64,000 nucleotides of DNA, taken from contig JAJYKS010000001.1 of assembly GCA_021788365.1 (NCBI GenBank), forward strand, positions 137,962-201,961. Direction: 5' to 3'. Made by a program: the position numbers and the translations under genes. Under the pieces are notes generated by a model. The model saw only the letters and a list, made by a program, of their open reading frames with translations. It searched no databases and had not been told where the DNA came from. This document shows, piece by piece, positions 35,854-56,604 of the stretch. This DNA comes from a bacterium. GTDB lineage: Bacteria; Patescibacteriota; Microgenomatia; UBA1400; UBA12108. Each line of letters starts with the position of its first letter. The stretch's first letter is position 1.

Positions 35854-36753
35854 CTATTTTGCAGATTTTTCATATTCATATCCAGATAAGTAGAACATTC
35901 TCCAAAAAGCAATAAACAAAGCAGTATCCCATCCATATTTCTCCATAGCCGTTTGATAGTATTCTTTTGCACCCTCAGTAAAATAACCCGTCTGGATTTG
36001 ATTCCATAGATCTGGGCATTTATTTCCCACTCTTTCGATTTGTGCCTCACTTCTGCCGAATTGGAACGCCGTTCTTAATTCGTGCTTTAAATCTATGGGG
36101 TCATGGTAAATGACTGCCTCTTGGGACACAAAGATGGGTACGCCGGCAGCCTTAATTTTTTGATCTAGATATCCATCATCACCAAATCTTACTTCGGGGT
36201 GGTATATATTACCCTCTTCTCCGATAACATCTATGAGCTCTCTCCGCTTTAACCCAAGTCCTGGTGAATATGATTTTGGTTCATAACGATTTTCGTGTGT
36301 CCTGGAATTGCTGATCAATTTACTAACCCTACTACCATCGTTAAGAAATATAACAGTTGGCTGAACTACCAAGTTACCCATCTTCAAGGATTGATTGATT
36401 ATTGCGATGGCGCCAGGTGCAAAAACAGAGTCGCTGTCCATGACAATAATATCGTTATGAGTTGATTCTTTGATCCCAGCTTCTGCAGCAATACTCCAAT
36501 TTCCATACCTGTGAGGGGCGACTTTAATACCTCTTATTTCATCTATAAAATCAGCGTCGTCTGCTACACTTGCCACAACCTCAACGGGCACATCTATAGA
36601 ATCCATACACCGGAGAAGTCCTTCTCTACTTCTTCCACATCTAATGACAACAGAGAGATCAGTTTTTTGATTTAAACCATTTTCAAATTTCATATTGCTT
36701 ACTTTAAGCCCTATATTTGTAGGCATTTTACTACTATAAGTCATTCTAGTCAA
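35854..36753 (-). CDS. Glycosyltransferase family 2
   Basis: N-terminal GT-A fold; DxD (MDSDS) motif. Confidence 0.6.
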   Translation of the reverse strand: MTRMTYSSKMPTNIGLKVSNMKFENGLNQKTDLSVVIRCGRSREGLLRCMDSIDVPVEVVASVADDADFIDEIRGIKVAPHRYGNWSIAAEAGIKESTHNDIIVMDSDSVFAPGAIAIINQSLKMGNLVVQPTVIFLNDGSRVSKLISNSRTHENRYEPKSYSPGLGLKRRELIDVIGEEGNIYHPEVRFGDDGYLDQKIKAAGVPIFVSQEAVIYHDPIDLKHELRTAFQFGRSEAQIERVGNKCPDLWNQIQTGYFTEGAKEYYQTAMEKYGWDTALFIAFWRMFYLSGYEYEKSAK

Positions 36754-36781
36754 AAAAAATATTAGTAGTAAAATATGCTCT

Positions 36782-39168: not shown

Positions 39169-39182
39169 TATAAAATTAGATC

Positions 39183-39902
39183 ATGAGAAAAGATTATTCT
39201 TTGGTCGCTAAGGAAGTTGGTAAAGAATACGAGTCTCACCCTAACTTAATCGGTATTTTGTGGATTGGCTCCTCTTCTTTTGGGATAACTGATCGCTTTG
39301 CAGATATTGATATTCGTTTATTAATTGATAAATCAAATAAACAATTCCCAATGCAACAATTTGTTAGACATGGAATCAATATTGAAGTAGACGAAATAAG
39401 TTGGGATTGGTTGATGAAAAATCATGCCATTGATAGTGAAGAGCGCTGGATAAGAGAGAAAGGGGTTGTCCTATATGATCCTCATAAGCGAATTGCTAAA
39501 AGATACACATTTTTGAAGAGAAAGATGAGGGTTTCAACCAACAGACAATTATGGGAAGAATTTAAGGATATTTTTTATAGTAACGACATTGAGAATTGTC
39601 TAAGGAGAGATGATATTGTTACCTCCACCCTTTATCTTAATAGAGGAATCGAAAAGATGCTTAAGTTTATCTTTTTGTTTAACGAGAAGCCCGTCCCACC
39701 GTTTAAATGGCGGTGGTATTTTGTACGTCAGGATAAAATTCTTCCATCAAAAATAACTGATTTAATGGAAGATATTATAAAAACTAGTGACTCTATAAAT
39801 AATAAATTGGAAAAATTAATTAGTATAGAAAGAGAGTTTCAAAAACTGATGATAGCAAAGGGATTTCCCAAAGAGCAGGTTATGGAGCATTGGCGGTTTT
39901 AA
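39183..39902 (+). CDS. Pol-beta-superfamily nucleotidyltransferase
   Basis: GSSSFGITDRFADID matches the GSx9-13Dx[DE] NTase motif. Confidence 0.55.
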   Translation: MRKDYSLVAKEVGKEYESHPNLIGILWIGSSSFGITDRFADIDIRLLIDKSNKQFPMQQFVRHGINIEVDEISWDWLMKNHAIDSEERWIREKGVVLYDPHKRIAKRYTFLKRKMRVSTNRQLWEEFKDIFYSNDIENCLRRDDIVTSTLYLNRGIEKMLKFIFLFNEKPVPPFKWRWYFVRQDKILPSKITDLMEDIIKTSDSINNKLEKLISIEREFQKLMIAKGFPKEQVMEHWRF

Positions 39903-39903
39903 A

Positions 39904-41433
39904 TCAAACGTTCCATGTTAAATAGGGATGAAAAAGGTCGATATTTCTGAAAATAGTGCTGTAGAAAATCATAGCTCGTTCATCGTCTCCATCTGCTTCC
40001 CTCAGCTTATCCTTTAACCTTGCTTGCAGTGGACTAATTCTGTGGTTATTACGGTTGAGATAGATTTCAATGTCTCTTCCGAACATTGCCGTCCCCTGGT
40101 TAAGCTTATCCTCAATCTCGGCAAGAAGTGGAACCATGTCATTAAACCCAGATTCGAAATATGGGTGGGTGAAAGCCTGGAAACCATATGATGTAAGGAA
40201 TTCAGGAGGCACATTTAAGAGCCTACCATTTTGTTGCATCTTCTTAAAAACTAGAGTGTCTGGCTCCATCATCATATTAGATACTATGAACCCTGAAGGG
40301 TTCAATTCTTGAAGCTGGTCAATCTCATGTCCTATGTTTTGTCTGCTATGCCAATCGTGACCAATGATAAATGTGGTAGCGATTTTGACACCTGCTGATT
40401 GATATTCCTTAATTTCTTCTTTGAGGTCAACATTATCATTTTTTGCATATGGATTAAGCATTGATTCAACGCCAATATTGACACAGGTAACACATAAATC
40501 TCCCTCAGTTATTTCTGCAGGCGAATATTGTTTTAGTATTTTTGAAGATGTGGTAGTAGCAAGTTCGACCGTATATCCTAAGTTGCGGCATCTCTTAAAT
40601 ATTTCTTTCCAAGTGGGAATATCACCCATACCTTGAGGATCAGCTAAGGAGAGAGAAATGACTTCATCTTCTTTTCCCAGCATTCTGTGTGCATAGTCTA
40701 TGGCTGAAATGATTTCATCTGCAGAATGGGGAGCGGTGAACTTGCCTTTGAATTGTGCCGTGGCTGGGCAGAAGTCACACTGATAGAAGCACCCATAACT
40801 AGACATCATCACGCCTATGGTGCTATTTTTAGCTTGGTTGCTGTAGGTAGTTTGGGTATGAGATGGTACGACGGATACCTTGAGTGGACGGCTGTCTTCG
40901 CCCAATAGCTTTCTTAAATCATCGATTTGGTTACCTTTAAGTGAGTAGTCTGATAATTGTGAAGTCTCCGGGATGGTAGCGCCAACTGCACCAGCTATTA
41001 TTTTTATTTCAGGGTGAACTTTACGTAAATGTTCGCTAATATCCCGAAAAACGCTATAGCCATTAAGGTAGATGGAAACAACTAAAGCTTTAATGTCTGG
41101 CTCATTTTTTAGTGTTTTTTCGAGATTTTCGATTGATATAGGATCTCGAATAACGATCCCATCTTTTTGAGTATTTATATTTAAGAAATTACCTGGTGGA
41201 TTCTCAGGCGCCCACGAAAAGGAAAAATTCTCACCTGCTTGTCTTTCTTTTAAAGCAGATATGTGTTCTTCTAAGAAATTTGCATCATAGAATTGTGGGT
41301 TTCCCCGCTGGATATATTCTCTCCCAACCTGATCAAGGTATTCAAGCTGCTTTGCTCTATTAGTTGTATTGTAGTCATACGATTGAGCGACTCCATATGC
41401 TATGGGACCTTCAATGACTGTCTCTTTTTGCAT
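39904..41433 (-). CDS. B12-binding-domain radical SAM protein (class B)
   Basis: 509 aa; N-terminal Rossmann-like cobalamin-binding region; CFYQCDFC (CxxxCxxC) radical SAM cluster. Confidence 0.7.
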   Translation of the reverse strand: MQKETVIEGPIAYGVAQSYDYNTTNRAKQLEYLDQVGREYIQRGNPQFYDANFLEEHISALKERQAGENFSFSWAPENPPGNFLNINTQKDGIVIRDPISIENLEKTLKNEPDIKALVVSIYLNGYSVFRDISEHLRKVHPEIKIIAGAVGATIPETSQLSDYSLKGNQIDDLRKLLGEDSRPLKVSVVPSHTQTTYSNQAKNSTIGVMMSSYGCFYQCDFCPATAQFKGKFTAPHSADEIISAIDYAHRMLGKEDEVISLSLADPQGMGDIPTWKEIFKRCRNLGYTVELATTTSSKILKQYSPAEITEGDLCVTCVNIGVESMLNPYAKNDNVDLKEEIKEYQSAGVKIATTFIIGHDWHSRQNIGHEIDQLQELNPSGFIVSNMMMEPDTLVFKKMQQNGRLLNVPPEFLTSYGFQAFTHPYFESGFNDMVPLLAEIEDKLNQGTAMFGRDIEIYLNRNNHRISPLQARLKDKLREADGDDERAMIFYSTIFRNIDLFHPYLTWNV

Positions 41434-41532
41434 GTGGTATATTATATACTAACCTTATAAGGTTATATTTATACGTTAAATAAGTCATATACTATAGGGA
41501 GTTGGGTCAAAGTCAATTTCCAGTCAGAGCAA

Positions 41533-42522
41533 ATGAAAAAAATAATATCGAACATACCACCGATGGAATGGGGCAGCGCATCAAAACTCATGGATGACAG
41601 GCCAGCAGTTCTTATTACCAGCCGTACAGCACTGAAAGTATCGCAACCCTTTATAAATAACATTAACATTAATGAAACAGTTATTATTGAAAATAGTCAT
41701 CGCGAGTATGTAGAGTCAATTCAAATTAAAAGACAGGATATCGCTATAGCCTATTTAGTAGGAGCAGGTCAAGTTAATGATATAGGGCGATATCTATCCT
41801 ACAAATGGCAATTGCCTGTAATAAGTATTCCTACCGCGATAACTGCAGATGCTTTTCTAGTAGATTGTACTGGGTTAAGAGAGAACAGAGGAGTAACGTA
41901 TCAGCCATCAAAAAGAGCGAATAAAATTGTACTTGATTGGGAATTGTTAAAAAAAGCACCTTGGAATATCAATGTCAGTGGCTGTGGAGATGTACTATCA
42001 ATTTTTACTGGACTTTGGGACTGGCAACATTTCGATGAATTTTACGATGTGGCTGTAGCAACCGAAGCAAAAGGTATTCTTGATGCTTTAATTAGCCAAA
42101 AAAACTCGATCGTTCGGCCTTCTCAAAAAGCATTGGAAATGCTCGTGAATTGCTTAGCAATGGAAGTTCAGTTGTGTTATCTATATGGTAATAGCAGGCC
42201 AGAAGAAGGTGGTGAGCACTTTTTCGCTTATTGTATAGAAAACAAGATAGGGCATTGTTTGCATGGTGAGATTGTGGGTTTTGGTATCCTTTTGACAGGC
42301 TTCTTGCAAAATCAAGATATAACCCAGATTAAAAACTTTATGGATACGATTAGTATGAGCTATTTACCTAGTAATATTAATGAAAAGGTGGTTATAGATA
42401 CACTAAGAGAACTACCCCAATATGTCAGAGAACAAAATTTGCGTTCTAGCATCTATAATAATTTTAACTATGATCAATCTAAGGAGAAGATAAAGTCTTT
42501 CTTTAAGTTAATAAACCTATGA
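41533..42522 (+). CDS. Dehydroquinate-synthase-like / glycerol-1-phosphate dehydrogenase-like enzyme
   Basis: GAGQVNDIG (GGGxxxD-like NAD motif), ISIPTAITADA and HCLHGEIVGFG metal-binding His motifs of the DHQS/Fe-ADH superfamily. Confidence 0.55.
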   Translation: MKKIISNIPPMEWGSASKLMDDRPAVLITSRTALKVSQPFINNININETVIIENSHREYVESIQIKRQDIAIAYLVGAGQVNDIGRYLSYKWQLPVISIPTAITADAFLVDCTGLRENRGVTYQPSKRANKIVLDWELLKKAPWNINVSGCGDVLSIFTGLWDWQHFDEFYDVAVATEAKGILDALISQKNSIVRPSQKALEMLVNCLAMEVQLCYLYGNSRPEEGGEHFFAYCIENKIGHCLHGEIVGFGILLTGFLQNQDITQIKNFMDTISMSYLPSNINEKVVIDTLRELPQYVREQNLRSSIYNNFNYDQSKEKIKSFFKLINL

Positions 42523-43193
42523 ACATTAAAACTAAATTTAACGAGGAGCTACTAATTGGTTTGGAGCGACAACCAACCAAAAAGGCTGTGCTATTGTTTT
42601 CTGGTGGAATTGATAGCACTGCTGCGGGAATTTTACTGAAAGAAAAAGGCTATCGAGTATTTCCACTATTTATCGATTATGGTCAAAGTTCGTTGGCAGC
42701 AGAACAATTAGTTGTTAACAAAATTGCTATCAAATTAGGTTTTGAGCCTGTTAGAGTCATAACTACTGAATTGCTCAAACAACTAACGAAAAGTAATCTC
42801 TTGGGTAAAGAGGCAGTCGATGATAGCCAAGCTTGGGTTCCAGGAAGAAATACTTTATTCATGATCATTGCCGGCATTTTTGCAAAGCAGGTTGATGCTG
42901 ACGGGGTATGTATTGGTTATATGCTTGATGACAATTTTGTTTTTGGAGATAATGATTATTTTCATCATAAGAATGTTGAGCAATTATTATCCAAGTCTTT
43001 TTTACAACCAATGGAAGTATTTATGCCTATTGTTAGTTACAGGAAAAAGGATTTAGTCACGCTTCTTATGGAGAAAGGCTTGTTAAGTGATACTGTTTCG
43101 TGTTGGAATGCTAAAGTAGTTAGGGGTAAGGTGGTTTCTTGCGGAAGTTGTGCGAATTGTTTAGAGAGAAATAGCTTGTTGGTTGTTAAATAA
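42519..43193 (+). CDS. queC: 7-cyano-7-deazaguanine synthase QueC
   Basis: PP-loop SGGIDST; C-terminal zinc-binding CWNAK...CGSCANC typical of QueC; 4-bp overlap with upstream gene. Confidence 0.85.
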   Translation: MNIKTKFNEELLIGLERQPTKKAVLLFSGGIDSTAAGILLKEKGYRVFPLFIDYGQSSLAAEQLVVNKIAIKLGFEPVRVITTELLKQLTKSNLLGKEAVDDSQAWVPGRNTLFMIIAGIFAKQVDADGVCIGYMLDDNFVFGDNDYFHHKNVEQLLSKSFLQPMEVFMPIVSYRKKDLVTLLMEKGLLSDTVSCWNAKVVRGKVVSCGSCANCLERNSLLVVK

Positions 43194-43601: not shown

Positions 43602-43659
43602 TTGCTCTCCATTAGTCACAATGTGTGCTGTGCGATATACTCCTAACTACTAATAAAAA

Positions 43660-44295
43660 TTACTGCAATATTGGCTTTAGGCTAGGCATTCCAACTTGTT
43701 TTAGTAGAAGAATATACTTCTTTGCGATTCTATCGAGTTCCTTCAAGGCGTTGTTGTATTTTTCTAAACTTGGCGGATTTGGAACTGATGGATCCCGATG
43801 AGCAATGGCTTTATCGACGTAAGCTTTAATTCCCGAAGTCGCTTCTGACAATATCTTAATATCTTTGTCTATGATCGCGGGATCTAAGAACTGATCACCA
43901 AAATGATTGTTAAACTCTGTTGCCGGTATCCCCCTGATAAAACCAGCTAATTCAGGATTATCTTTGAGAAGACTTGAGTCGGTGAGCCATTCTTTAACAT
44001 ACCAATCTTTCGTAATCAGTGTGTTATTCTTCCTCATTCTTAGCAGGAGTTTCATCAGACTTATTTCGGAAGATTTTTGGTCATTAGTAATTTGTCTTCT
44101 CACGGAGGTTAGCATGTCAGAGTAATGACTTTTCGTTACAGTGGTACGTATATGTGGATCAATATCCGATTCGTGCAATTTTGGAATTGTTATTCTAGTG
44201 AAAACATCCTCTTTATAGAGGATGTCTGTTATTTCTTCTGAAATTATTTCTAGATCGTATTTAAGTTTTTTTATAAATTCTTCTTGCATGCCCAT
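43660..44295 (-). CDS. Hypothetical alpha-helical protein, third gene of helicase-nuclease operon
   Basis: 211 aa; 6-bp gap to upstream nuclease gene; contains an Rx6H stretch (HIRTTVTKSH) that could be HEPN-like (weak). Confidence 0.4.
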   Translation of the reverse strand: MGMQEEFIKKLKYDLEIISEEITDILYKEDVFTRITIPKLHESDIDPHIRTTVTKSHYSDMLTSVRRQITNDQKSSEISLMKLLLRMRKNNTLITKDWYVKEWLTDSSLLKDNPELAGFIRGIPATEFNNHFGDQFLDPAIIDKDIKILSEATSGIKAYVDKAIAHRDPSVPNPPSLEKYNNALKELDRIAKKYILLLKQVGMPSLKPILQ

Positions 44296-44301
44296 AAAAA
44301 C

Positions 44302-45804
44302 TCATTTCGACTTTTCCAGGTAATCTTTTATCACCATCGTGGCCTTACAGTCGTCTTCGTTATAGTCAATAATACGCCGTAATTTAGTTGGGTTTTTATC
44401 TTTTAAGTATTCGTTAAACCACTGAATAGAAAGCGCACCTGATGGAGATATATCACGCCATGAAAACCCAAGGTACTTGGCAATATCTTTGAGAGAGTAA
44501 CTATATAACGGCCAGTCTGTCATCTTGAGAATGTATTGACTATACAAATCGATTGCACGTTCCGGAGACAGCAGGTAATCTAATTCTTCGAGCAAAATTA
44601 CGTCTGGATATTGCTTCTGCATTCTATGGTAGGTTGTAACTTCGTGATGCGAATAGTAATAAAGACACCATTTATCCTGGGGCAGGTTCTTGAGGTAACT
44701 AATAAATCCTTTCCATGCTTGCTCTTCTGCTTCTGGAGTCTTTTCTTTGGCTACGAAAGGGATAAATCTTGAGCCGTTGGGAGACCTCTCGTAGACTCCA
44801 TGAAGATAAACAAAGCTTTGAGTCGGATCATCTTCGATATCGAAATAAAGTTCATAATCAACTTGTGGGAAGTGGATTTCGCCGTTAACTACTGGTTTCT
44901 TGATATCAGCTAGAACCTTTGCTCTAGTTTGTAATTTCTTGAGAGTCGGTTCACCAATTCCCCGTAGAAAGGATTTATTTCCTGCCTTTTTTCCCATCGC
45001 AATGGCAATATCAAGATCACGCAGTTCTTCTACTGTTTTTAGCTCAAGATCATGAGCTAGCGTTCCCCTTATACTTCGGCCCAGGTAAAAGAGTGTTGTT
45101 AAATCGTGATTCTTTGTACACCACCCCTTACAACTATCGTACCAAGGACAGAGCTTACACGCGCCACTTAACGCTGGCTCATTCCTTGCTTCGTTATTTA
45201 ACAGATGTCGTACCTCGTTTTTGGTTTCTTGATATAAATCCCACCAAGTTGCGTGATTGCGAACACCCATTGGCTTACCCAGCTCATACAGAGTCTCATT
45301 GTGATCTATATCGTAGATTATCCCCATCTTATCTTTAGCGAATCCTAGGGCGATAAGCACCTCTGCGTAGAGGGCAAGTTGGACAGCGTAGTGCTTTTTG
45401 GGTTTACCGGGATTTTCCTCTTCTTCGCTGACGCCTTCTAGCCCTCTTCCACTTTTAATATCGATGGGCAAGTACGTTCCATCTGGCATGAGGCGGAGCA
45501 GATCTGGTTCTCCTGCAAGATCGTTATAACGGATATAGCCATGATAAATAAGAGGGGTTTTATTCCTCATTGCCTCTAAAGTACGAGCAAATTGTGTATC
45601 TTTGTCGGGATTGCTCAGATCAAGTATTGCCCCAATACCGCCAATAACATCTTTCTCATGTTGGACACCTTTCTCCCAGAGCATCTCCACAAATGGATTT
45701 GTTTCTTTTATCTTTTCTTCCTGAGGACCATATAAATCTCTCCATGGTCTATGGGGACACTGGAGGTATGCATAGAGCTTGGAGGGTGTTATTAAATAAG
45801 TCAT
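44302..45804 (-). CDS. RecB/Cas4-like PD-(D/E)xK nuclease-domain protein
   Basis: N-terminal YLQCPHRPW Cys motif, MPDGTYLPIDIKSG (PD...DxK core), C-terminal Cys cluster CKLCPWYDSCKGWC (Cas4-like Fe-S). 4-bp ATGA overlap with helicase gene. Confidence 0.55.
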   Translation of the reverse strand: MTYLITPSKLYAYLQCPHRPWRDLYGPQEEKIKETNPFVEMLWEKGVQHEKDVIGGIGAILDLSNPDKDTQFARTLEAMRNKTPLIYHGYIRYNDLAGEPDLLRLMPDGTYLPIDIKSGRGLEGVSEEEENPGKPKKHYAVQLALYAEVLIALGFAKDKMGIIYDIDHNETLYELGKPMGVRNHATWWDLYQETKNEVRHLLNNEARNEPALSGACKLCPWYDSCKGWCTKNHDLTTLFYLGRSIRGTLAHDLELKTVEELRDLDIAIAMGKKAGNKSFLRGIGEPTLKKLQTRAKVLADIKKPVVNGEIHFPQVDYELYFDIEDDPTQSFVYLHGVYERSPNGSRFIPFVAKEKTPEAEEQAWKGFISYLKNLPQDKWCLYYYSHHEVTTYHRMQKQYPDVILLEELDYLLSPERAIDLYSQYILKMTDWPLYSYSLKDIAKYLGFSWRDISPSGALSIQWFNEYLKDKNPTKLRRIIDYNEDDCKATMVIKDYLEKSK

Positions 45805-48800
45805 TTTTCAAATAAATAGTCAGCTTCTAACGCTTTATTCACTATTTTTTCACCATAAGCTTGCTGCTTATCAGTCAGATGACCTTTTCGTGAAAGATAT
45901 ACCCCCAAAGAAAAACAGAATCTATTCTCAAATGAACTAAATTTGCCCGTTGTCTTTCCCCAATGAGCTAGGGCGAACCAATATTCCTTCTTAGTAAAAA
46001 GGTTGGCGGGAATAGTATTAACAAAAAGCCTTGTTTGTTTATCGTTTTTCTTTTTCAATTTTTGTTTAGCTCTCGATATTTTCGGGTTTGACTCTACGAC
46101 TTTTAGTACGGCGTTTGCGTCGGCTTCCTCGGAAGCTAATACCGTGATGTTGGTATCTAATTCTTTGTCTTCGATTGGATATTGTTCTATTTTTCGCTCA
46201 GTATTTGTTGGCTGTTTAGCTAATGACGCTAAGATATTATCAATAGCTTCCTCAGGGTTCCGATAAAATATGCTTGCAGTCAATCGCTCTACATCCCATT
46301 GAGTTATTCTTTCTATAGTAGCTTGGCGCTGGTAGTGTTCAGGTGGCAGTTCACCAGAGTCATCAAACTTAAAATCTCCATCACATTCTAGTGCCAATGT
46401 GCGCCCTTCTTTATCAAAGAGTACCTGGTCTATTCTATAACCACCACATTCAAATTGAGTTACTACATTTATCCCTCTTCCTCTGATAATATTGCAAACG
46501 TCTTCTTCAAACATGCTATCAAAATGATCATCTTTAGGCTTCAGTGGATCAGAATACGTTTCTTGAATATGAATAGCATGTTCCATGAATGACTTAATTA
46601 ATTTACCAGGGAATTGGCTAGGTTTTCTCGAAGTGAAAATTATTGCTTTTCTTCTGGCACGTGTAAAAGCAACATTCATGCGCTTAAAACCTTCTTCATT
46701 TACGCCGCCCTCTATACTGGTTACACTCCCTGCTTTACCGTCTGGAGCTGATCTCATAGAGTATAGGATTACGTCTCTCTCATCACCCTGGAAACCGTCA
46801 ACTGTTCTTGACTGAATACCAAAATTTACGATATCATCTGGCGATAAGTTTTGATAAATAAGTTCGCTTATATAATCAGCTTGCTGTCTAAATGGAGAAA
46901 TAACTCCTAGAGACAGACCATTCATTGAACGATCTGAAACTAATTCTTTAAGTGTTAACAATACCTCATTAGCTTCAATTCTGTTGATCTTAGCTTCGGT
47001 ATCTTCAGATCCGGAGTCTATATACCGCACCTCCATTGGGGGATTGAACCTGTTCTCCCAAATGGGGGTCATGATTTTCATCATATTGTTATAAACATTC
47101 TTATTTGACCAAGCGATGATGGTGGGATCACAACGAAAATGCTCGATTAAGGGGATAGGTGGTGTTGCAGCTTGCGCGAAAGTGAGGAGCGAGAATTCTT
47201 TACAGTCAAAAAATTGAGATTTATCGTGATTTAGCAAATTGTATTTTCGTTGGAGCGTATCCGTAATACCTTTTTGCAAGAAGCGAAGACTTGCGCTCGG
47301 CAATTGCTTTTCATCCCCTACGATAATTGCATTTTTTGCGCGATAAAAGAGATGTGGTATCGCAGTCTGACTGCATTGAGATGACTCATCTACGATTACG
47401 TAGTCGAATAAACCCTTCTGGAGGGGAAAATATCTAGAAATATCATCAATGCTGACAATCCAACAAGGGAAATAATATAGGACTTGAGAAAAATCTATTG
47501 AATCTTTCTTTTTAAGGAAAGAGAGGGTTTTCTTTTTCTTACCCAGGAGTTGTTTTAGCTTCACTAGATTCGCATTCGCCAAACGACTACCACTAGCCTC
47601 ATGAAGCGATTTTAGTCTAGTGAACAAAATATACTTATGAATGAGTGCCTTGTTTTTACTTTCTATTTGCTTGATCGTTTTTGCAATCAACCCAGGAGTT
47701 TCCGTAACTACATCGCCATATAATCGCATTAGCCTGTGACATTCAACAATATTTTCTATTTCAAGCAGTTTTTTTGGTACGGCATAGTTATTTTGAATAA
47801 GGAGCTCTTGAATTATTTTCAAAGATTTTGGAATAGTAAGTAACTTTCCAGCTACGACCTGATAGCGATGGAATTGCTTAAATTTTTCCGTACTATCCTC
47901 AATGCGTCTCAGCATGTCTTGAACAGAAACTGGAGACGTCCAGTCAGGAAGTTCAAGGATTGGTGTACTAGTCGAAGATAGTTTTCTATAGTTGTTTATA
48001 CTTTCGATGCATAATTTTATATCTAACAAAGAACGCTCAGAGTCTATATCAAAAGTTTTATTAAAAAGCTCATCAAGGTTATGCTCTCGTAATTCTGAGA
48101 ACAATTTAAATAGCTTAAGAATATCTTGGAGAAGTTTATAAAAGCTACCATACTCTTTGATATTGCATAATTCAACAGATATTAATTCATATGAAGAGAT
48201 TTCTGTTTTTACGGCCTCTATATTGAGAAGAGTTTTTTTAATGTTTATTATTCCTTCTATCTTTTGTATTAAGAGAGGTTTTACACGCTTGTCTATTTGC
48301 GAAATTCCAAAAATACTGGCTATATACTCATGCGCTAAAACTGATTTTTTATCAACAAACTTAGATAGTAGGTGTAAGCTGGATTTTTTAATTATTTCCA
48401 AGTTCTGTTCTAAGTCGAAAAGAGTGTATCGTGTGTTTTCTGCGAGTGGAAGCAGTTCGTTTAAGTTTGGATGTTTGTCGATACAATAATTGCTAGCTTT
48501 TACTAGTTTAAGCAGCTTATCGTATTCCAGCTTGGAAAGCTTAACGATTTGGTCAACTACTGCTGTCCGGTCGGCAATTAAGGGTACATCATTTTTGAAT
48601 TCTGATATGGTATCTTTATATTTTAATAGTATATCTAGATAGGAAATAACTTTCTTGAAGTCTTTACTTACGCCAAGAATATCTTTGAAAAGCTTAGTGT
48701 CAAAATTTGTTGATGTAGATTTCGTAAGCACCTTGTTTAGATTGCTAGCCATTTTGTTTAAGGTATCGATGTTGACTTCAACTTGCTTAATCGTTAGTTT

Positions 48801-50390
48801 GTATTCCTGAAAAATCATTAACTCATCTTTAAGACTTGTTAGAACATTAATATATTCCTTTAGGAGGTTAATATTATTTATTTGTTCTTTACTTTCGAAA
48901 TACTCATTACTATCAATTACATTGAACTCCCCGAGTTCTTTTATCCTAATGGGCGAATCTTCCGCTGATTTATACTTCTTCCGCTCTTCTATCTTAAGTT
49001 CAGAAAATTTATTAGATAGATTAGCAATTTTTTCTTTATTTATACGTAGGTTGTTCTTTATTTCGGTTAGTTCTGTATTAATTTCATACGTCGAGCCAAT
49101 CCCGAGTGAGTACACACTCAAAGCCTCGAGTTTAGCTCGAATGTCATCAGCAATTTTCGATTCCTTTTGGCCTCTAATGAGTGAGAGTTCTAGTGGGACC
49201 GTTAATTCTGGGTGTTTTGGTGCAGGTAGTGAGATATTTCTCTTAAGTTTGTCTCTAACTACTTCAAGAGCCTTGGGTTGCTGACTTGTCACTAATACAG
49301 ATTTTCCGCTTGCAATAAGATGGCATACTAAGTTTGATATTGTCTCTGATTTTCCAGTGCCAGGGGGTCCCCAAACTACGGTAAGTTTCTTTTCCATTGC
49401 AGCATCACAGATTCGCTGTTGATGAATATTTGACTTTAATGGAAAAAAATAATGATCTTGCTTTGGATTATTACTAGTTTGACTATCTTCAACATTCTCA
49501 TTTTCCTGAAAATTGACTGTCAACAACTCTTCAATGGGAGTGTTTTCAATAGTGTCGTTGATGGTCGATAATTGATCGAGATCATCTAAAACAAATGATC
49601 CTGTCCTTGGTGTATTGACCAAAACACCTGCATTGGCGACATATGCTTTTTCTTCAAGTGCGAGTATTTCATTTACCGAATTCAGCTTGTGAAAGATTTT
49701 AATGTCTCTAAAATCTTTTATATGGTTGGTAAGTAGTTCTACAAACTTATCTATAAATGAAGAGTCTATTTCTTCAGATTCTAGAAATATTTCATTAATT
49801 TCACTTCTTACGGGAATCATTGAATCGTCTGGCAAAAGGCTAGCAATTAGTCCGCGGTTTAGGTCTGGTTTACTTGCTAATCTAGTAATAGTAAACGCAG
49901 ATGTGGTGGGATCGTACGCAATGTCAACTTGATTTATTAAAAGCGGAGCAAAAAAGGTTTTCTTGTTTATCGATGCTTTTACAATATATTGCCCTAATAC
50001 TGTTTCTCGTTCGTATGGATTGTTTTCCTGAGTTCGCCAGATTTTATTGACTGCTGCCCAAGCGATATCTTCATCAGTTATCTCTAGCTCTCCAGCTTCT
50101 TCATCCTGGTTAACTTCTTCGAGAGCATTTTCTTCTTCCTCAAATTTTTTAGCAACAAGATCTTTTTTTGGCTTTTTTATTATTATTACTTCTTTTGCAA
50201 GATATTCTCTTTCTTTTATTAGCAGCGCGAGATCGGAAACCATACCATATCTTTGTCCTAGAGCAAGGTTCTGAAGTACTCTTGATGCTGATGAGGAAAC
50301 ATATTTGAGCACTTCTCTGTAATACTTAGCTAGACTTTGTAATAAAGCTGCCTCTACCGTTGGTTCATTTTTCAAGTTTGAATCTAGCAT
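45801..50390 (-). CDS. Large Upf1/DNA2-like SF1 helicase with C-terminal DUF559 (Vsr-like) endonuclease fold
   Basis: 1529 aa; Walker A VWGPPGTGKSETISNL, long coiled-coil insert, motif II VIVDESSQ, motif VI MNVAFTRARRKAIIF; C-terminal ECGGYRIDQVLF...LALECDGDFKFDD nuclease-like fold. Confidence 0.8.
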   Translation of the reverse strand: MLDSNLKNEPTVEAALLQSLAKYYREVLKYVSSSASRVLQNLALGQRYGMVSDLALLIKEREYLAKEVIIIKKPKKDLVAKKFEEEENALEEVNQDEEAGELEITDEDIAWAAVNKIWRTQENNPYERETVLGQYIVKASINKKTFFAPLLINQVDIAYDPTTSAFTITRLASKPDLNRGLIASLLPDDSMIPVRSEINEIFLESEEIDSSFIDKFVELLTNHIKDFRDIKIFHKLNSVNEILALEEKAYVANAGVLVNTPRTGSFVLDDLDQLSTINDTIENTPIEELLTVNFQENENVEDSQTSNNPKQDHYFFPLKSNIHQQRICDAAMEKKLTVVWGPPGTGKSETISNLVCHLIASGKSVLVTSQQPKALEVVRDKLKRNISLPAPKHPELTVPLELSLIRGQKESKIADDIRAKLEALSVYSLGIGSTYEINTELTEIKNNLRINKEKIANLSNKFSELKIEERKKYKSAEDSPIRIKELGEFNVIDSNEYFESKEQINNINLLKEYINVLTSLKDELMIFQEYKLTIKQVEVNIDTLNKMASNLNKVLTKSTSTNFDTKLFKDILGVSKDFKKVISYLDILLKYKDTISEFKNDVPLIADRTAVVDQIVKLSKLEYDKLLKLVKASNYCIDKHPNLNELLPLAENTRYTLFDLEQNLEIIKKSSLHLLSKFVDKKSVLAHEYIASIFGISQIDKRVKPLLIQKIEGIINIKKTLLNIEAVKTEISSYELISVELCNIKEYGSFYKLLQDILKLFKLFSELREHNLDELFNKTFDIDSERSLLDIKLCIESINNYRKLSSTSTPILELPDWTSPVSVQDMLRRIEDSTEKFKQFHRYQVVAGKLLTIPKSLKIIQELLIQNNYAVPKKLLEIENIVECHRLMRLYGDVVTETPGLIAKTIKQIESKNKALIHKYILFTRLKSLHEASGSRLANANLVKLKQLLGKKKKTLSFLKKKDSIDFSQVLYYFPCWIVSIDDISRYFPLQKGLFDYVIVDESSQCSQTAIPHLFYRAKNAIIVGDEKQLPSASLRFLQKGITDTLQRKYNLLNHDKSQFFDCKEFSLLTFAQAATPPIPLIEHFRCDPTIIAWSNKNVYNNMMKIMTPIWENRFNPPMEVRYIDSGSEDTEAKINRIEANEVLLTLKELVSDRSMNGLSLGVISPFRQQADYISELIYQNLSPDDIVNFGIQSRTVDGFQGDERDVILYSMRSAPDGKAGSVTSIEGGVNEEGFKRMNVAFTRARRKAIIFTSRKPSQFPGKLIKSFMEHAIHIQETYSDPLKPKDDHFDSMFEEDVCNIIRGRGINVVTQFECGGYRIDQVLFDKEGRTLALECDGDFKFDDSGELPPEHYQRQATIERITQWDVERLTASIFYRNPEEAIDNILASLAKQPTNTERKIEQYPIEDKELDTNITVLASEEADANAVLKVVESNPKISRAKQKLKKKNDKQTRLFVNTIPANLFTKKEYWFALAHWGKTTGKFSSFENRFCFSLGVYLSRKGHLTDKQQAYGEKIVNKALEADYLFEK

Positions 50391-50448: not shown

Positions 50449-50676
50449 TTATGAAAATAGTTCCGAAAGCTTGATTTTGAGTGTTTTGGCAAGCTTACCT
50501 GTATTGTCTAGGGAAACATTCTGTTCGCCTCTTTCGATAGCACCAATATAAGTTCTGTGGATATTTGCCTTGAATCCTAGGTTCTCTTGAGAAAGTCCTA
50601 AGCTCTTGCGAATTTCTCTAACCCTTTGACCAAATTGCTTACGCAATCTCAGATTAGGTTTTTGTTTTGTCGTCAT
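50449..50676 (-). CDS. XRE-family (Cro/CI-like) HTH transcriptional regulator
   Basis: 75 aa; helix-turn-helix LGLSQENLGFKANIHRTYIGAIERG. Confidence 0.8.
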   Translation of the reverse strand: MTTKQKPNLRLRKQFGQRVREIRKSLGLSQENLGFKANIHRTYIGAIERGEQNVSLDNTGKLAKTLKIKLSELFS

Positions 50677-50785: not shown

Positions 50786-51271
50786 ATGGCAGATGTATAT
50801 AAAAAGAAAAATTGGTTTGCCAGACACAAAATATTGACTGGCATCTTGGTAATTATTGCTATAGGGATGATTGGGAACGCTGCAGGGGGTAGCAATAAAG
50901 GCGACTCTAGCGCCGGATCTTCCCCTACTCCCAGTGCTCAAGAAATAACTTACGAAAAACTGGACACAAAGAGTTTTATCGCTGAGTTTGATCAGAATCA
51001 GCTAGCAGCTGAGAGTAAATATAAAGATAAATACGTCGAATTTAAGGGCGTGATTAAGAATATCTCTGAGGATATCGCGAGCAACCCATTTCTCTCGATT
51101 GAACCACCGACAACTGGTGACTACTACTATGGGACGACAATCAAATGCACTTTTAAGAGCAAGGATGAGCTGATGAACGTGCAGAACAAGCAGACGGTTA
51201 CGCTGCGTGGACAGGTGAAGAGTCAGACACTAGGAATTATCAGTTTGGATAAATGCTCGCTTATTAAGTAG
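50786..51271 (+). CDS. Hypothetical membrane-anchored protein
   Basis: 161 aa; N-terminal TM; AAGGAG RBS; divergent from XRE gene. Confidence 0.45.
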   Translation: MADVYKKKNWFARHKILTGILVIIAIGMIGNAAGGSNKGDSSAGSSPTPSAQEITYEKLDTKSFIAEFDQNQLAAESKYKDKYVEFKGVIKNISEDIASNPFLSIEPPTTGDYYYGTTIKCTFKSKDELMNVQNKQTVTLRGQVKSQTLGIISLDKCSLIK

Positions 51272-52092: not shown

Positions 52093-53430
52093 ATGAACAA
52101 ACATACACCAAAAGAAATCCGTGAAGTGTCGGTGACTGAGTTAAAGCCGGCAACTTATAACCCCAGGAAATGGGATAAGGAGGCTATAGGCCAGCTTACT
52201 GAGAGTCTGACCCGGTTTGGATGTGTTGACCCGATTATTGTTAACAACGCGCAGGGTCGAGAAAACGTTGTGATTGGCGGGCATTTCCGTCTCAAGGTTG
52301 CAAAGGATCTGGGTTACACCACCATCCCTGTTGTATATGTCACTATTCCCGAAATAGAGCGAGAGAAAGAGCTTAATCTGCGGCTAAACCGTAACCTTGG
52401 AGAGTGGGATTGGGAAATCTTGACTCAGTTTGATGAATCGCTGCTTAATGATGTTGGCTTTAGCAGCGAAGAGTTGGACGAGATATTTACGTTAGACCCC
52501 GCCCCCGAGTATTTTGACCTCAAAAAAGAGTTGGCGAAACTTGAAATTTCTAAAGTAGCAATCCAAAAGGGAGATATCTACCAGCTCGGAGAAAGTCGAA
52601 TGATGTGCGGAGATTCCACCATAGAGGCTGACATGCTCAAGTTACTGGGTAACGAGCGGGCGGATATGGTGATGACAGATCCTCCTTATATACTGGATTA
52701 CCTGCACGCCAAGCGTCATGGCGAACCAACAACTGGGTTTGGGGCGAAGAAGAATCGACGCTATTTGGAAACAGACTTTCTCCCCGACAACTTTACCGAC
52801 CTGTGGATGGCTAACATCGCCAAAATTGCCAAGCCTAATTTTTCGATTATTGTCTATGAAAACTGGAAGAACCTGCGAACGATATGGGCTGGGATGGAAG
52901 CACAGAGCTTTAAGGTCCGAAATATGTTGGTTTGGCATATCCCTAACCGCCATCAGGGTTTTTCGGCAAAGTATAAATTCTTTTCGAAACATGATATAGC
53001 GATGGTCGGGACGCAAGGTGAAGTTAAACTTAATCTTGGAGATGAAGAGGAGCTAGTGCAAAACGAGTACGAGACTGCTCTTTTTGCCACTCAAGGCAAA
53101 CCAACTTGGGAAGGATATAAACAAGATAAGAAGAACCAACCCTCTGACTTTATCGAGCACATTGCCTGTGATGCTAAACAGACTGGACAAGACATTATCT
53201 TTGGCACGAAGCCCGTAGAAATTCTAATTCCTTACATTAAAGTGCTAACCAAACGAGGAGACTTAGTAGTCGAACCGTTTGGTGGGAGCGGCAGTACTCT
53301 TATAGCTTCCAGCATGATTAACCGCCGCTGCTACTTAATGGAAAAGTCACCGGTTTATGCCGAAGTGATCAGACATCGCTGGGAGAAGTGGAGCGGACAA
53401 AAGGTGATAAAGATAGAGGAGGCCAAATGA
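52093..53430 (+). CDS. ParB-like nuclease domain fused to N6/N4 DNA methyltransferase
   Basis: N-terminal ParB-N motifs (IVNNAQGRENVVIGGHFRL); C-terminal DPPY (MTDPPYILDY) and SAM-binding EPFGGSGST. Confidence 0.8.
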   Translation: MNKHTPKEIREVSVTELKPATYNPRKWDKEAIGQLTESLTRFGCVDPIIVNNAQGRENVVIGGHFRLKVAKDLGYTTIPVVYVTIPEIEREKELNLRLNRNLGEWDWEILTQFDESLLNDVGFSSEELDEIFTLDPAPEYFDLKKELAKLEISKVAIQKGDIYQLGESRMMCGDSTIEADMLKLLGNERADMVMTDPPYILDYLHAKRHGEPTTGFGAKKNRRYLETDFLPDNFTDLWMANIAKIAKPNFSIIVYENWKNLRTIWAGMEAQSFKVRNMLVWHIPNRHQGFSAKYKFFSKHDIAMVGTQGEVKLNLGDEEELVQNEYETALFATQGKPTWEGYKQDKKNQPSDFIEHIACDAKQTGQDIIFGTKPVEILIPYIKVLTKRGDLVVEPFGGSGSTLIASSMINRRCYLMEKSPVYAEVIRHRWEKWSGQKVIKIEEAK

Positions 53431-53831
53431 CGAAGACAGAGAGCACCAAGAGGAAAGTGCTTTCGTTTCTTGCTATAGCTCCGGTAGTAGAAGTAGCGGT
53501 AAAACGAGCGGGAGTTGCCCGAGCGACCTACTACCGCTGGCGTAAAAGTGATTCTGTTTTTGCCCAAGCTGCTGATGAAGCCATCGAACAAAGTTGCCAC
53601 CTAGTAAACGATCTTGCCGAATCCCAACTAATTAGCGAGATTAAAGCTAAGAATATGACCGCCATTATGTTTTGGTTAAAACACCGACATGCAGGATACC
53701 GCAACAAGCTGGAGCTATCAGGGAAAGTTGAAACTGAGAGCAATAAGTTGTCGCCGGAACAAGAAGAGGTTGTGAAACGAGCGTTAGAAAATGCAGGATT
53801 GCTGCCACTGGAGTCTACTAATGAAACTTAA
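53427..53831 (+). CDS. Putative terminase small subunit (HTH)
   Basis: GAGGAGG RBS before ATG 53427; HTH-like region GVARATYYRWRKS; immediately upstream of large terminase. Confidence 0.45.
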   Translation: MTKTESTKRKVLSFLAIAPVVEVAVKRAGVARATYYRWRKSDSVFAQAADEAIEQSCHLVNDLAESQLISEIKAKNMTAIMFWLKHRHAGYRNKLELSGKVETESNKLSPEQEEVVKRALENAGLLPLESTNET

Positions 53832-55275
53832 TCAGACATATGACCCACGCTTATGGGAACAAATCCGCATAAATAAGGAGCTGAGAGTCAAACTAGCATC
53901 CGAAAGCTTGTATTGGTTTTTCCATCTCTATTTTGGAGAAAATGCGAACTACCCCACGGCTGAGTTTCAAAAAGAGATATATGCAATACTGGAAGACCCA
54001 AACGCTAAACACGTCGTGATCGTAGCTTTTCGCGGATCTGGAAAATCGACAATTGCTACCCTGGCTTACCCCATTTGGGCAATTTTAGGTAAACCGGCTA
54101 ATAAGTTTGTGCTTATTCTGAGCCAGACCCAGTCGCTCGCCCGGTCGCATCTACAAAATATTAAACGGGCTTTTGAGGGAAATGAGCTACTACGGAATGA
54201 CTTTGGACCAATTAATGAAATGAGTGACGAATGGGGATCCACGTCTTTGGTAATCCCGAAATACAATGCCAGAATCAGTACCGCTTCAACGGACCAAAGT
54301 ATCCGGGGAATCAGGCATGGCGCACATAGGCCAGACTTGATTATTGCGGATGACGTCGAAGATATAAGTTCTGTCCAAACCCAAGAAGGACGTGACCGGA
54401 CATACGAGTGGTTTGTATCAGAAGCCATACCAGTAGGAGACAAAGAAACCAAGATTGTGAATATCGGCAATTTACTGCACGAGGATTCACTCCTTATGCG
54501 GCTGCGAGAAAAAATGGAATCAAAGACACTACCTGGCGTATACCGAGAATACCCGATAATCGACAAAAACAACATACCGCTGTGGCCGGGGAAATATCCG
54601 ACTACAGAAGATATTGAAGAACAGAAAAGAAAAATCATGGACGAGCGAGCGTGGTTGAGGGAATATTGTTTGAAAATCGTGGCAGCAGACGGACAGCTAA
54701 TTAAACCAGAGTGGATCCATACTTACTTTAAGTTACCAGAGACTAGTGAGGATTCTTTCTCGCACGCGGCTTTTGCGGTGGATTTAGCGATTACACAAGG
54801 CTTAAATTCTGATTACACAGCGATAGTGTCGGCACACATTTTCCATGATGCTAACGACAAGATCACTATTTACATCTTGCCAAACCTAATAAATGAAAGA
54901 GTGGACTTCCCGACTATGGTGGAGACGGTGAAAATGTTTAAAAGAACATTGCTGCCCAGCCATCGAGTCGAGACCTATGTAGAAAGTAATGGGTTCCAAG
55001 TGTCGCTAGTACAACAGCTTAATAATGAGGGATATGATGATATCAACAGTGTGAAAGTAAGTGCCAATAAGCGGATACGTTTACAAAATACAACTCATCT
55101 TTTAAAGAATGGATCGATTCTTTTCCCACAGCATGGCTGCGAACAGTTAATAACTCAATTAGTAGGTTTTGGCAAAGAAAAACATGATGATTTGGCCGAT
55201 GCTTTTTCACTGTTAGTCAACCAAATAATGGTAAATGAAAAACCGACGCCGGGAATATTTGTTATTGAATACTAG
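53821..55275 (+). CDS. Phage terminase large subunit
   Basis: Walker A-like VVIVAFRGSGKST, acidic IIADDVED motif, C-terminal RNaseH-like nuclease region. Confidence 0.75.
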   Translation: MKLNQTYDPRLWEQIRINKELRVKLASESLYWFFHLYFGENANYPTAEFQKEIYAILEDPNAKHVVIVAFRGSGKSTIATLAYPIWAILGKPANKFVLILSQTQSLARSHLQNIKRAFEGNELLRNDFGPINEMSDEWGSTSLVIPKYNARISTASTDQSIRGIRHGAHRPDLIIADDVEDISSVQTQEGRDRTYEWFVSEAIPVGDKETKIVNIGNLLHEDSLLMRLREKMESKTLPGVYREYPIIDKNNIPLWPGKYPTTEDIEEQKRKIMDERAWLREYCLKIVAADGQLIKPEWIHTYFKLPETSEDSFSHAAFAVDLAITQGLNSDYTAIVSAHIFHDANDKITIYILPNLINERVDFPTMVETVKMFKRTLLPSHRVETYVESNGFQVSLVQQLNNEGYDDINSVKVSANKRIRLQNTTHLLKNGSILFPQHGCEQLITQLVGFGKEKHDDLADAFSLLVNQIMVNEKPTPGIFVIEY

Positions 55276-55299: not shown

Positions 55300-56604
55300 G
55301 TGTGTCCTGCCATGGATACCCCTACCCCATCCCTAAAATATGTCCTGTATGCCCGTAAATCTAGCGAGCAGGATGAGCGACAGGCGATGTCTATCGACTC
55401 ACAAATCAAGGAGATGGGAGAGTTGGCAGTACGAGATGGCGCTACAGTGCTCGATATCCGGCAAGAAAGTCATTCTGCCAAACAATCAGGCCAACGTCCT
55501 GAGTTTATGCGTGTACTACAAGATATTCGAGATGGCACATTTAACGCAATACTAACTTGGGCACCAGACCGACTATCGCGGAATGCGGGAGACCTTGGGA
55601 TGTTAGTAGACCTAATGGATCAAGGAAAGCTTGTGCAGATTAAGACTCCTACCCAGACATTCGCCAATAACCCGAATGAGAAGTTTCTCCTTATGATCCT
55701 ATGCTCGCAGGCTAAGCTCGAGAATGATCAGAAAAGCCTGAATGTTAAGCGGGGAATACGCGCCAAGTGTGAGATGGGCTGGAGGCCGGGGCCGCCACCA
55801 ATCGGCTACTATAACCGGACAATGGCGGGATTAAGGGATATTATTGTTGACCCTGACCGAGGATATGTGATAAAGCAGATGTTTGAAAAGTCTAGGGATG
55901 GATGTGGGGGACGGGCCATTGATCGCTGGTTTCAGGAGATTGGCTTTACGACCAGGAAAGGTAAACGAGTAACCCTATCGCAGATTTACCTAATGCTGCG
56001 GAATCCTTTTTACCATGGTGCATTCGAGTACCCCAAAGGTAGCGGTAGGCTTTACCAAGGAGCTCACACGCCCCTAGTATCGAAAGAATTATTTGAGGAT
56101 GTACAAAAGAAATTAACGGTTCCAGTTAAAGCCAAGTGGGGTGGTAAAGACTTTGCATTTAAAGGAGTGTTCTTATGTGCAACTTGCGGAAGTAGCGTGA
56201 TTGGGGACGAAAAATTACGTAAGCGTAAATGGGCTGAGCCAAAGCGTCATATTTATTATCATTGCACGAGGAAACGTAACTATGATTGCCCAGAGCCCCC
56301 TACCACTGAGGAAGAGTTGACGAGAGAATTAGTCCGCTATATTCGCTTGATTGAGAATGTGAAGCCACAATATATTAAATACTCGCCTCGACTCTCTAAG
56401 CGGATTGAACATTTTAAGAGTCTGCGCGACCAGGTTTTCTTAACTGGCGATGTTGACCCAGACAAGCATACGCTCAGGTTTAATGACTATGTGAAGTACG
56501 TTATGCAGATGGGGAGTTTGGAGGAGAAAAGGGACGCAGTGTTAGCTGTTAACAGACAGTTATATCTCCATAACAAATCAATTATTGTGAGTCCGATTGT
56601 GTAG
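55300..56604 (+). CDS. Large serine recombinase (integrase)
   Basis: Resolvase catalytic domain (YARKSSEQDERQ with catalytic Ser, DRLSRN), recombinase domain, zinc-ribbon CATCGS...YYHCTRKRNYDC. Confidence 0.85.
   Translation: MCPAMDTPTPSLKYVLYARKSSEQDERQAMSIDSQIKEMGELAVRDGATVLDIRQESHSAKQSGQRPEFMRVLQDIRDGTFNAILTWAPDRLSRNAGDLGMLVDLMDQGKLVQIKTPTQTFANNPNEKFLLMILCSQAKLENDQKSLNVKRGIRAKCEMGWRPGPPPIGYYNRTMAGLRDIIVDPDRGYVIKQMFEKSRDGCGGRAIDRWFQEIGFTTRKGKRVTLSQIYLMLRNPFYHGAFEYPKGSGRLYQGAHTPLVSKELFEDVQKKLTVPVKAKWGGKDFAFKGVFLCATCGSSVIGDEKLRKRKWAEPKRHIYYHCTRKRNYDCPEPPTTEEELTRELVRYIRLIENVKPQYIKYSPRLSKRIEHFKSLRDQVFLTGDVDPDKHTLRFNDYVKYVMQMGSLEEKRDAVLAVNRQLYLHNKSIIVSPIV

Follow-up and report, generated by a model that had tools for sequence, protein, structure and literature searches.

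A putative helicase-nuclease pair and an AbiU2-type gene in the variable cargo slot of a phage-derived integrative island

Three adjoining genes on the reverse strand of a 64,000-nucleotide stretch of contig JAJYKS010000001.1 (assembly GCA_021788365.1, positions 137,962 to 201,961; the whole stretch is called the window) were analyzed: a superfamily 1B (SF1B) helicase-endonuclease gene (45801..50390, 1529 aa), a nuclease gene of the TM0106/COG2251 family (44302..45804, 500 aa) and a gene of probable AbiU2 (HEPN) type (43660..44295, 211 aa). The explanation that we favor, at slightly better than even chances, is that this slot holds a helicase-endonuclease together with a shared accessory exonuclease, both forming a split DNA2/AddAB-like DNA degrader, and an independent AbiU2 abortive-infection (Abi) gene. 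A functional link between helicase and nuclease is suggested by their repeated adjacency in several orientations, by the existence of fusions and by the non-orthologous replacement of the nuclease; what is presumed is a role against phages, the physical cooperation of both proteins, their polarity and the trigger. An earlier sequence-only reading had proposed three open reading frames (ORFs) in an AT-rich island adjoining phage genes, and this layout was reproduced with identical coordinates. Helicase and nuclease ORFs overlap by 4 bp, a gap of 6 bp separates the nuclease from the AbiU2 gene, and the trio lies inside a stretch of 34-40% GC (approximately 26-51 kb of the window, compared with 50-56% at 3-25 kb), with genes for a helix-turn-helix (HTH) repressor, a Sie-like protein, a ParB-methylase, TerS, TerL and a serine integrase nearby. 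The mobile, defense-rich setting that had been proposed agreed with the position of the trio in a variable slot beside phage-type genes.

The helicase presented three Pfam matches: AAA_11 (residues 320-476, split), AAA_12 (1076-1255) and the restriction endonuclease family MTES_1575 of the Vsr clan, the latter marking a PD-(D/E)xK domain (residues 1294-1390; 46221..46511, reverse strand) with E 8.6e-16 and 58.2 bits (cut-off 38.2). Homologues comprised around 19 full-length clusters (46-66% identity). All of the 13 aligned homologues kept the Walker A motif (GPPGTGKS, residues 341-348; 49347..49370, reverse strand) and motifs II, III, V and VI unchanged, and the endonuclease residues D1321, E1335, D1337 and K1341 were invariant as well. 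In the same alignment the N-terminal ~300 aa, which match no detectable family, were conserved, and the insert separating Walker A from motif II was poorly conserved over residues ~497-860. Among solved structures DNA2 was the closest in sequence, with Sen1, IGHMBP2 and Upf1 also among the nearest. The sequence marks the protein as an SF1B helicase of the Upf1/DNA2 kind that carries an intact endonuclease of the Vsr/MTES_1575 type. Walker A, motifs II and VI, a large insert and the AAA_11 and AAA_12 domains had all been anticipated by the sequence-only reading and were recovered. Its description of the C-terminus held for the Vsr/DUF559-like fold and failed for a DUF3320-like tail: neither DUF3320 nor DUF4011, the latter also put forward for checking, was matched in Pfam at E ≤ 0.1. 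When its profile was compared by hhalign with that of a true DUF4011/DUF3320 helicase, only residues 986-1405 could be aligned; the endonuclease domain found its counterpart in the DUF559/MTES_1575 domain of a helicase with DUF4011.

The best PADLOC model for the helicase was PDC-S37 (PDLC05009; E 9.1e-63), for which no curated cut-off is given, with residues 269-1451 aligned to positions 239-1394 of the 1550 in the model; partial matches to MkoA, MkoC and Hhe came next. The NCBIfam models ProA (NF058533; 216.3 bits, cut-off 1500) and Hhe (NF042953, PADLOC PDLC02194; 150.3 bits, cut-off 2000) were matched far below their thresholds and over residues 909-1458 and 942-1449 only, respectively, and membership in both was rejected. 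Mokosh was also discarded, with MkoA and MkoC matches limited to the helicase 2A region (residues 992-1255) and no PLD domain in the Pfam scan. Hachiman, Gabija, Nhi and Hna, to whose arrangements the trio had been likened, gave no PADLOC match for the three proteins at E ≤ 0.1, and this likeness was abandoned. The more general idea of a candidate anti-phage helicase was strengthened by the PDC-S37 match and by the Hhe- and ProA-like regions. Since other helicases of related loci scored E = 0 on PDC-S37, the window helicase family is probably a sister to PDC-S37, and it adds a new branch to the giant helicase-endonucleases of the Hhe/PDC-S37 class.

The NCBI model of the helicase gene encodes 1480 aa and starts 49 codons later, thus excluding positions 50244-50390 of the window. 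Residues 17-46 were invariant or nearly so among homologues; because of this conservation we favored the 1529-aa start, and the longer ORF is probably the correct gene. With regard to distribution, E. coli genomes gave no match, two scans of viral contigs yielded nothing for the helicase, and a scan of a genome collection with a generic Walker A pattern retrieved distant SF1 helicases only.

The nuclease matched the TM0106 model TIGR03491 with 219.6 bits against a curated cut-off of 97.45 (residues 6-496 on model positions 2-462 of 462). It contains a Cas4-like PD-(D/E)xK domain (45115..45804, reverse strand), recognized by Pfam PDDEXK_1 and by the PADLOC and TIGR Cas4 models, all of them weakly, and a DEDD exonuclease domain, RNase_H_2 (PF13482; residues 319-496; 44317..44850, reverse strand; E 4e-27). 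In an alignment of 14 sequences, invariant residues were C16, C216, C219, C225, D101, D115-I-K117 and Q142...Y146 for the Cas4-like domain, and D322-x-E324, D419 and Y481-x3-D485 for the DEDD domain. The Cas4-like cysteine, the PD...DIK core and the C-terminal cysteine cluster of the sequence-only reading were therefore sound, and the second domain had been overlooked in it. COG2251/PF13482 has been placed among the 3'-5' exonucleases, COG2251 combining with a DUF83 (Cas4-like) domain and, frequently, with tandem AAA domains (PMC3985635). We consider the protein a full-length TM0106/COG2251 member, with a predicted Cas4-like iron-sulfur (Fe-S) domain plus a DEDD 3'-5' exonuclease domain. A Cas4 role in CRISPR adaptation was rejected: the score on TIGR00372 (CRISPR-associated Cas4) was 26.3 bits, below the cut-off of 65, no tandem repeat array or CRISPR-like repeats were present in the window, CRISPR RNA families were unmatched, and no cas genes occurred among the scanned neighbor genes. 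More than 1900 homologues of the nuclease were found; the best 120 listed showed 54-69% identity, and most of those with names came from Patescibacteria. Matches were obtained on 56 plasmids, and neither a tblastn search of 50,697 phage genomes nor a PDB sequence search with the nuclease profile returned any relative. No functional study of TM0106 or PF13482 was found in the literature.

A Cas4+DEDD nuclease adjoined window-type helicases in six of nine contexts and in three orientations, in agreement with the recurrent helicase-nuclease pairing that had been proposed. The nuclease gene follows the helicase gene on the same strand in the window, in L004 (=L069/L070) and in L151 (L numbers designate the compared loci), and both genes are convergent in L005 and L132. 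In L145, a 494-aa DUF2779 protein with Cas4+DEDD architecture is encoded just upstream of a helicase of the window family (L145:1224-2708). It shares the cysteine pattern and the EIK and DxE motifs of the window nuclease at weak overall similarity (E 3e-4), and appears to stand in for the TM0106 nuclease as a non-orthologous substitute. Genes for TIR, ThsB-TIR, reverse transcriptase, AAA_15+HNH and type III restriction-modification (RM) proteins were found as neighbors of window-type helicases. Distant helicase relatives on plasmids were located after brxL (Acinetobacter) and before a gene for a GIY-YIG nuclease near AbiE (Variovorax).

A metagenome scan with the nuclease gave 440 relatives, from which 80 loci were kept; their ORFs were called and clustered and the neighbors classified. 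The gene upstream of the nuclease was on the same strand in 58 cases vs. 9. Partners were counted where 3 kb or more of sequence preceded the nuclease, in a non-redundant set of 50 loci: 20 of these had a classified gene of helicase, RM or OLD type immediately upstream on the same strand, and 32 had one within 6 kb. The helicases directly upstream included window-type and DUF4011/Hhe enzymes as well as SF1 enzymes with a C-terminal Top1 zinc ribbon or WYL domain. Further direct upstream partners included ResIII proteins, a UvrD-like helicase, an OLD-family nuclease, a 1236-aa SNF2 protein (BrxH/DrmD/HmaA-like) and RM enzymes of types I, IIG and ISP, and the upstream domains additionally included Mrr, McrBC, DpnI, EcoRI-methylase, MmeI, Abi_2, DUF3800 and DUF2130. 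The nuclease is not specific to the window helicase and accompanies many unrelated defense genes. PDC-S37 was matched by 10 of 27 scanned partner and neighbor proteins, with a best E of 0 (loci including L072, L078, L113, L141 and others); as SF1 helicases at loci matching this model directly precede a TM0106 nuclease, PDC-S37, catalogued as a single-gene candidate, may have an unrecognized partner in this nuclease.

Fusions of a TM0106 nuclease with an SF1 helicase were found in cultured hosts. Genes annotated as TM0106 family and encoding 1111-1129 aa occur on plasmids of Rhizobium etli, Novosphingobium, Phenylobacterium and Piscirickettsia, and an unnamed gene of the same size (1099 aa), a candidate fusion, on a Sphingobium plasmid (L152, L153, L155, L156 and L158 for the five hosts together). 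The architecture was checked in the Rhizobium, Novosphingobium and Piscirickettsia proteins: in the three of them the first ~500 aa gave a full-length alignment to the nuclease profile, and the remainder carried SF1 motifs that could be aligned to window-helicase motifs I, II/III and V/VI. Several of these loci have a divergent WYL regulator, and SIR2, dGTPase, multiubiquitin/E2/E1 and SbcCD-like genes were among the neighbors. The plasmid nuclease-SF1 fusion is a candidate DNA2-like defense gene, of which no description was found.

A broader proposal, which we advance tentatively and hold for considerably less probable than the reading of the window itself, is that the TM0106/COG2251 nuclease could be an unrecognized, partner-agnostic "finisher" of prokaryotic immunity, destroying or resecting the ends made by unrelated DNA-targeting systems. 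In Proteobacteria it would be a fused, WYL-regulated DNA2-like defense gene. In uncultured bacteria with small genomes, for the most part Patescibacteria as far as the sources are named, the nuclease is a separate gene beside RM systems of types I, IIG and ISP, Gabija-like OLD/UvrD genes, SNF2 proteins and several SF1 helicase-endonucleases, and would act on the DNA ends that these create.

Several results weigh against a cooperating helicase-nuclease pair. Three of the nine helicase contexts (L001-3, L146 and L147-150) lacked such a nuclease. Gaps between nuclease and partner genes (median 9 bp) were no tighter than the background (19.5 bp; P = 0.23); with gaps like those generally present in compact genomes, operon coupling is weak evidence, and tight spacing was rejected as a sign of it. 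A few upstream genes were housekeeping ones (DnaK, DnaJ and ClpB-type), and the nuclease also follows type IIG enzymes without a translocase. PDC-S37 is a computational candidate only, with the helicase far below the Hhe and ProA cut-offs, and for the sensor part of the reading the AlphaFold model of the N-terminal 330 aa was unusable (predicted confidence, pLDDT, of 45). Finally, the Novosphingobium fusion adjoins SRAP, AlkB, DinB and error-prone polymerase genes (SOS/translesion), which would fit DNA repair.

The absence of the nuclease beside some helicases and the ordinary gene spacing would both be expected if the helicase-endonuclease were sufficient by itself, in keeping with the annotation of PDC-S37 and Hhe as single-gene systems, and the nuclease only a conserved island gene or recombination anchor flanking a cargo hot-spot, with no role in defense. 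The order ParB-methyltransferase, variable cargo, nuclease does recur (L069, L090, L091, L103, L105 and the window), and in some loci (L005, L092, L129, L132) nuclease and neighbor gene are in divergent or convergent orientation. A neighbor-joining tree of the nucleases, built on identities, did not sort by partner type, in line with an anchor; the tree was star-like and not robust, and a co-evolution of nuclease and partner was rejected on it. Nevertheless we regard this explanation as unlikely. The nuclease is missing from a sister island of the window (L055), so it moves with the cargo. It is also found in defense islets without terminase or integrase, such as one with the order RhuM-DUF2130-SNF2-nuclease. 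Moreover, fusions with SF1 helicases exist, and in L145 the DUF2779-type analogue takes the place of the nuclease.

Less probable still is that helicase and nuclease work in DNA repair or recombination, as a module similar to DNA2, AddAB or MrfAB, serving replication and maintenance of the island or repair in the host instead of immunity. In addition to the SOS-type neighbors of the Novosphingobium fusion, this alternative draws on DNA2 as the closest solved relative of the helicase and on PF13482, which includes the helicase-paired repair exonuclease MrfB/YprB (PMC12458937, PMC11194089). It is opposed by the sister island, which exchanges the slot for an RM gene, by the patchy and mobile distribution, and by the neighbors in more than 80 loci, which were overwhelmingly RM or defense genes. 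A Vsr-type endonuclease on the helicase is, furthermore, typical of Hhe-like defense proteins, and the lack of any nuclease match in the phage genomes searched argues against a phage recombination gene.

Under the favored explanation, a first module would consist of the helicase with its own Vsr-type endonuclease, kin to Hhe, PDC-S37 and ProA and probably co-transcribed with the TM0106 nuclease. The helicase would load onto foreign or replicating DNA, translocate 5'→3' and nick or cut the DNA, and the accessory nuclease, with a Cas4-like Fe-S 5'-end nuclease and a DEDD 3'-5' exonuclease, would degrade both strands from the resulting ends. The nuclease is seen as a generic finisher because it is common to many other DNA-targeting defense genes. 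Phage single-stranded DNA-binding protein (SSB) or replication intermediates could be the trigger, as reported for the helicase-nuclease defense systems Nhi, Hna and Hachiman (PMC10732053). The second module would be a stand-alone AbiU2-type (HEPN) abortive-infection gene that merely abuts the first.

The 211-aa protein scored 25.3 bits (E 1.2e-5) on HEPN_AbiU2 (PF18734), the gathering score being 26.8; among its aligned relatives, 37 of 43 matched this family, with a best E of 1.5e-17. Its AlphaFold2 model was all-helical with a pLDDT of 95.3. On these profile and model data the protein is probably a member of the AbiU2 (HEPN) family. An exhaustive phmmer search retrieved 234 relatives; 150 were listed, with lengths of 168-301 aa and a single exception of 632 aa. 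Conserved residues in the family alignment were R67, S79, D145 and H166, and no canonical conserved Rx4-6H motif appeared in it. The suggestion of a HEPN-like third protein was supported at the level of the family, and the Rx6H stretch on which it had been based (taken as R50-x6-H57) was not, these positions not being among the conserved ones.

The closest AbiU2 homologue (89% amino acid identity) was encoded in the sister island L055, which has neither the helicase nor the nuclease. L055 and the window have TerL, TerS, ParB-methyltransferase, HTH and AbiU2 genes in common (60-95% amino acid identity). The interval between the HTH and AbiU2 genes, which holds helicase and nuclease in the window, is occupied in L055 by a 349-aa gene and by genes for a type IIG methylase, a LexA-like repressor and a DUF2188 protein. 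DNA homology between window positions 43653-44296 and L055:8701-9344 reached 87% over 644 nt, extending from one base ahead of the AbiU2 start codon to 7 nt past the stop codon, with unrelated flanks. The AbiU2 gene is preceded by a strong GC hairpin in L055 and by the nuclease stop codon in the window. It behaves as a discrete gene cassette.

The sequence-only reading had treated the three genes as one dedicated defense system, in which the HEPN protein would serve as effector or regulator. The 4-bp overlap and the 6-bp gap do suggest a single transcript, and no convincing terminator was found between the genes. The comparative data largely refute this view, which we now consider very improbable. 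Apart from L055, where both partners are missing, none of the other helicase and nuclease loci examined was hit by the AbiU2-family hidden Markov model (HMM), and the L055 homology spans exactly the AbiU2 ORF. The third gene was a different one elsewhere: in L004, the best-resolved parallel, the gene after the nuclease is unrelated to AbiU2, and in L151 it encodes a 276-aa PDDEXK_1 protein. The genes following the helicase in L145 and L146 differ again, and AbiU2 relatives are, save for the large one mentioned, small stand-alone proteins. A co-occurrence of the three families across genomes was accordingly not found (L055, L004, L151, L145, L146).

As regards L145 and L146, small proteins of 239 and 224 aa (L145:7548-8267 and L146:5639-6313) are encoded directly after the helicase, with no TM0106 nuclease there; they showed 25% identity to each other (E ~1e-9) and no Pfam match on record.

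On the other side of the trio, the slot is flanked by a conserved gene for a 75-aa HTH regulator (50449..50676, reverse strand), related to PHROG transcriptional repressor/regulator families and with a homologue in L055. The following genes are on the forward strand. An OB-fold (tRNA_anti-like; Pfam PF12869) protein (50786..51271) resembled the superinfection exclusion-like phrog_8545 (E 2e-10) and may be another small defense gene at the slot edge. After it come a 236-aa protein of no assigned family and the island core: a ParB_N-DNA methyltransferase fusion recognized by Pfam (52093..53430; phrog_498, E 4e-82), a TerS-like terminase small subunit (53388..53831; PHROG TerS families), a TerL terminase large subunit (53791..55275; phrog_38, E 1.6e-84; Pfam Terminase_6C) and a large serine recombinase, or integrase (55300..56604; Pfam Resolvase, Recombinase and Zn_ribbon_recom; phrog_95, E 9e-63). 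No capsid, portal or tail genes were in view around this core. We read the element as an integrative island of phage origin whose variable cargo slot is filled by the trio.

Genes of this type recurred in the nuclease loci, 24 of the 50 having a homologue of the ParB-methyltransferase, TerS, TerL, serine recombinase or LexA-like proteins; the TerS-like family (family 5) was present in 10 loci. ParB-methyltransferase homologues (63-67% identity) adjoined the nuclease in L069, L090, L091, L092 and L103. The module of ParB_N-methylase, TerS, TerL and serine integrase, often with an HTH or LexA-like gene, recurred beside a variable defense slot in L005, L055, L069, L090, L091, L092 and L103, again with no phage structural genes in view, and looks like a family of satellite-like defense islands in uncultured bacteria.

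To the left of the trio, positions 26719-43193 of the window hold an AT-rich biosynthetic cluster of sugar/deazapurine type. It comprises genes for a major facilitator superfamily (MFS) transporter, a GFO/IDH oxidoreductase, GT4 and GT2 glycosyltransferases, a DegT aminotransferase and a PIG-L deacetylase, together with QueE-like radical SAM, radical SAM/SPASM, 509-aa radical SAM-like, Fe-ADH_2 (sugar-phosphate cyclase-like) and QueC-like proteins. Its product may be a modified sugar or a 7-deazapurine with a glycosyl group, and a role in DNA modification is another possibility. A related oxidoreductase, plus glycosyltransferases at a similar distance, occurred in L069. The GC-rich flanks (1-25000 and 59900-64000; 50-56% GC) encode histidine kinases, MacA/MacB-like efflux proteins, an MFS exporter and a flavoprotein reductase, and a tRNA-Gln (59832-59905) was the sole RNA gene detected across the window. 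The gene content of the flanks does not look typically Patescibacterial, whereas the closest protein relatives of the island are mostly from Patescibacteria; the island may have been transferred between phyla.

The TM0106 nuclease family is abundant, well conserved and uncharacterized, and it is embedded in defense islands, where it swaps between many immune genes; a broad defense-island association of this kind was not found in the literature on TM0106 or PF13482. If the nuclease cooperates with its partner systems, it would represent a shared downstream layer of DNA-based immunity, a cheap marker for new defense genes in uncultured lineages, and a candidate system amenable to study in Rhizobium, Sphingomonads and Piscirickettsia. 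The island with integrase, terminase, ParB-methylase and an exchangeable slot offers in turn a handle on the mobile defense islands of poorly studied bacteria.

Compared with known systems, the window helicase shares with PDC-S37, ProA and the validated Hhe (a DUF4011 helicase with a Vsr endonuclease) the giant polypeptide, the split Upf1-like SF1 core, the C-terminal Vsr/DUF559/MTES_1575 endonuclease and the location in defense islands. It differs from them in its own conserved N-terminal region of 300 aa and in that its family is usually accompanied by a Cas4+DEDD nuclease. With Hhe it has in common an SF1 core with intact endonuclease residues, but it lacks DUF4011 and DUF3320. True members of PDC-S37 (E = 0), for which no functional study was found in the literature, form a distinct partner family in the nuclease loci.

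The nuclease has the Cas4-like plus PF13482 architecture described for TM0106/COG2251 (PMC3985635); it is a stand-alone protein of 500 aa beside a helicase or RM gene here and in Patescibacteria-like contigs, whereas the plasmid forms of Proteobacteria have it joined to a compact SF1 helicase in one protein. As in DNA2, AddAB and RecBCD, an Fe-S PD-(D/E)xK nuclease is combined with an SF1 helicase; in contrast to these enzymes, the pair in the window would consist of two polypeptides with extra DEDD and Vsr-type domains, in a mobile defense context and with no orthology at the sequence level. MrfAB (YprAB) likewise pairs a helicase gene with a gene for a PF13482-family 3'-5' exonuclease (PMC12458937, PMC11194089), but MrfA is an SF2 helicase of the YprA/DUF1998 type, MrfB has no Cas4-like domain and the role of both is in chromosomal repair.

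The 211-aa protein resembles lactococcal AbiU2/HEPN proteins in being small, stand-alone, all-helical and related to PF18734, and departs from them in a score slightly under the gathering value and in that no canonical conserved Rx4-6H was seen in its family alignment. With respect to the island, in the cargo slots of P2/P4-type satellites and prophages conserved core genes flank a slot that exchanges unrelated defense genes. The exchangeable defense slot of the window may be comparable to these; here, the core is formed by a serine integrase, TerL, TerS and a ParB-methylase, and the hosts are uncultured bacteria.

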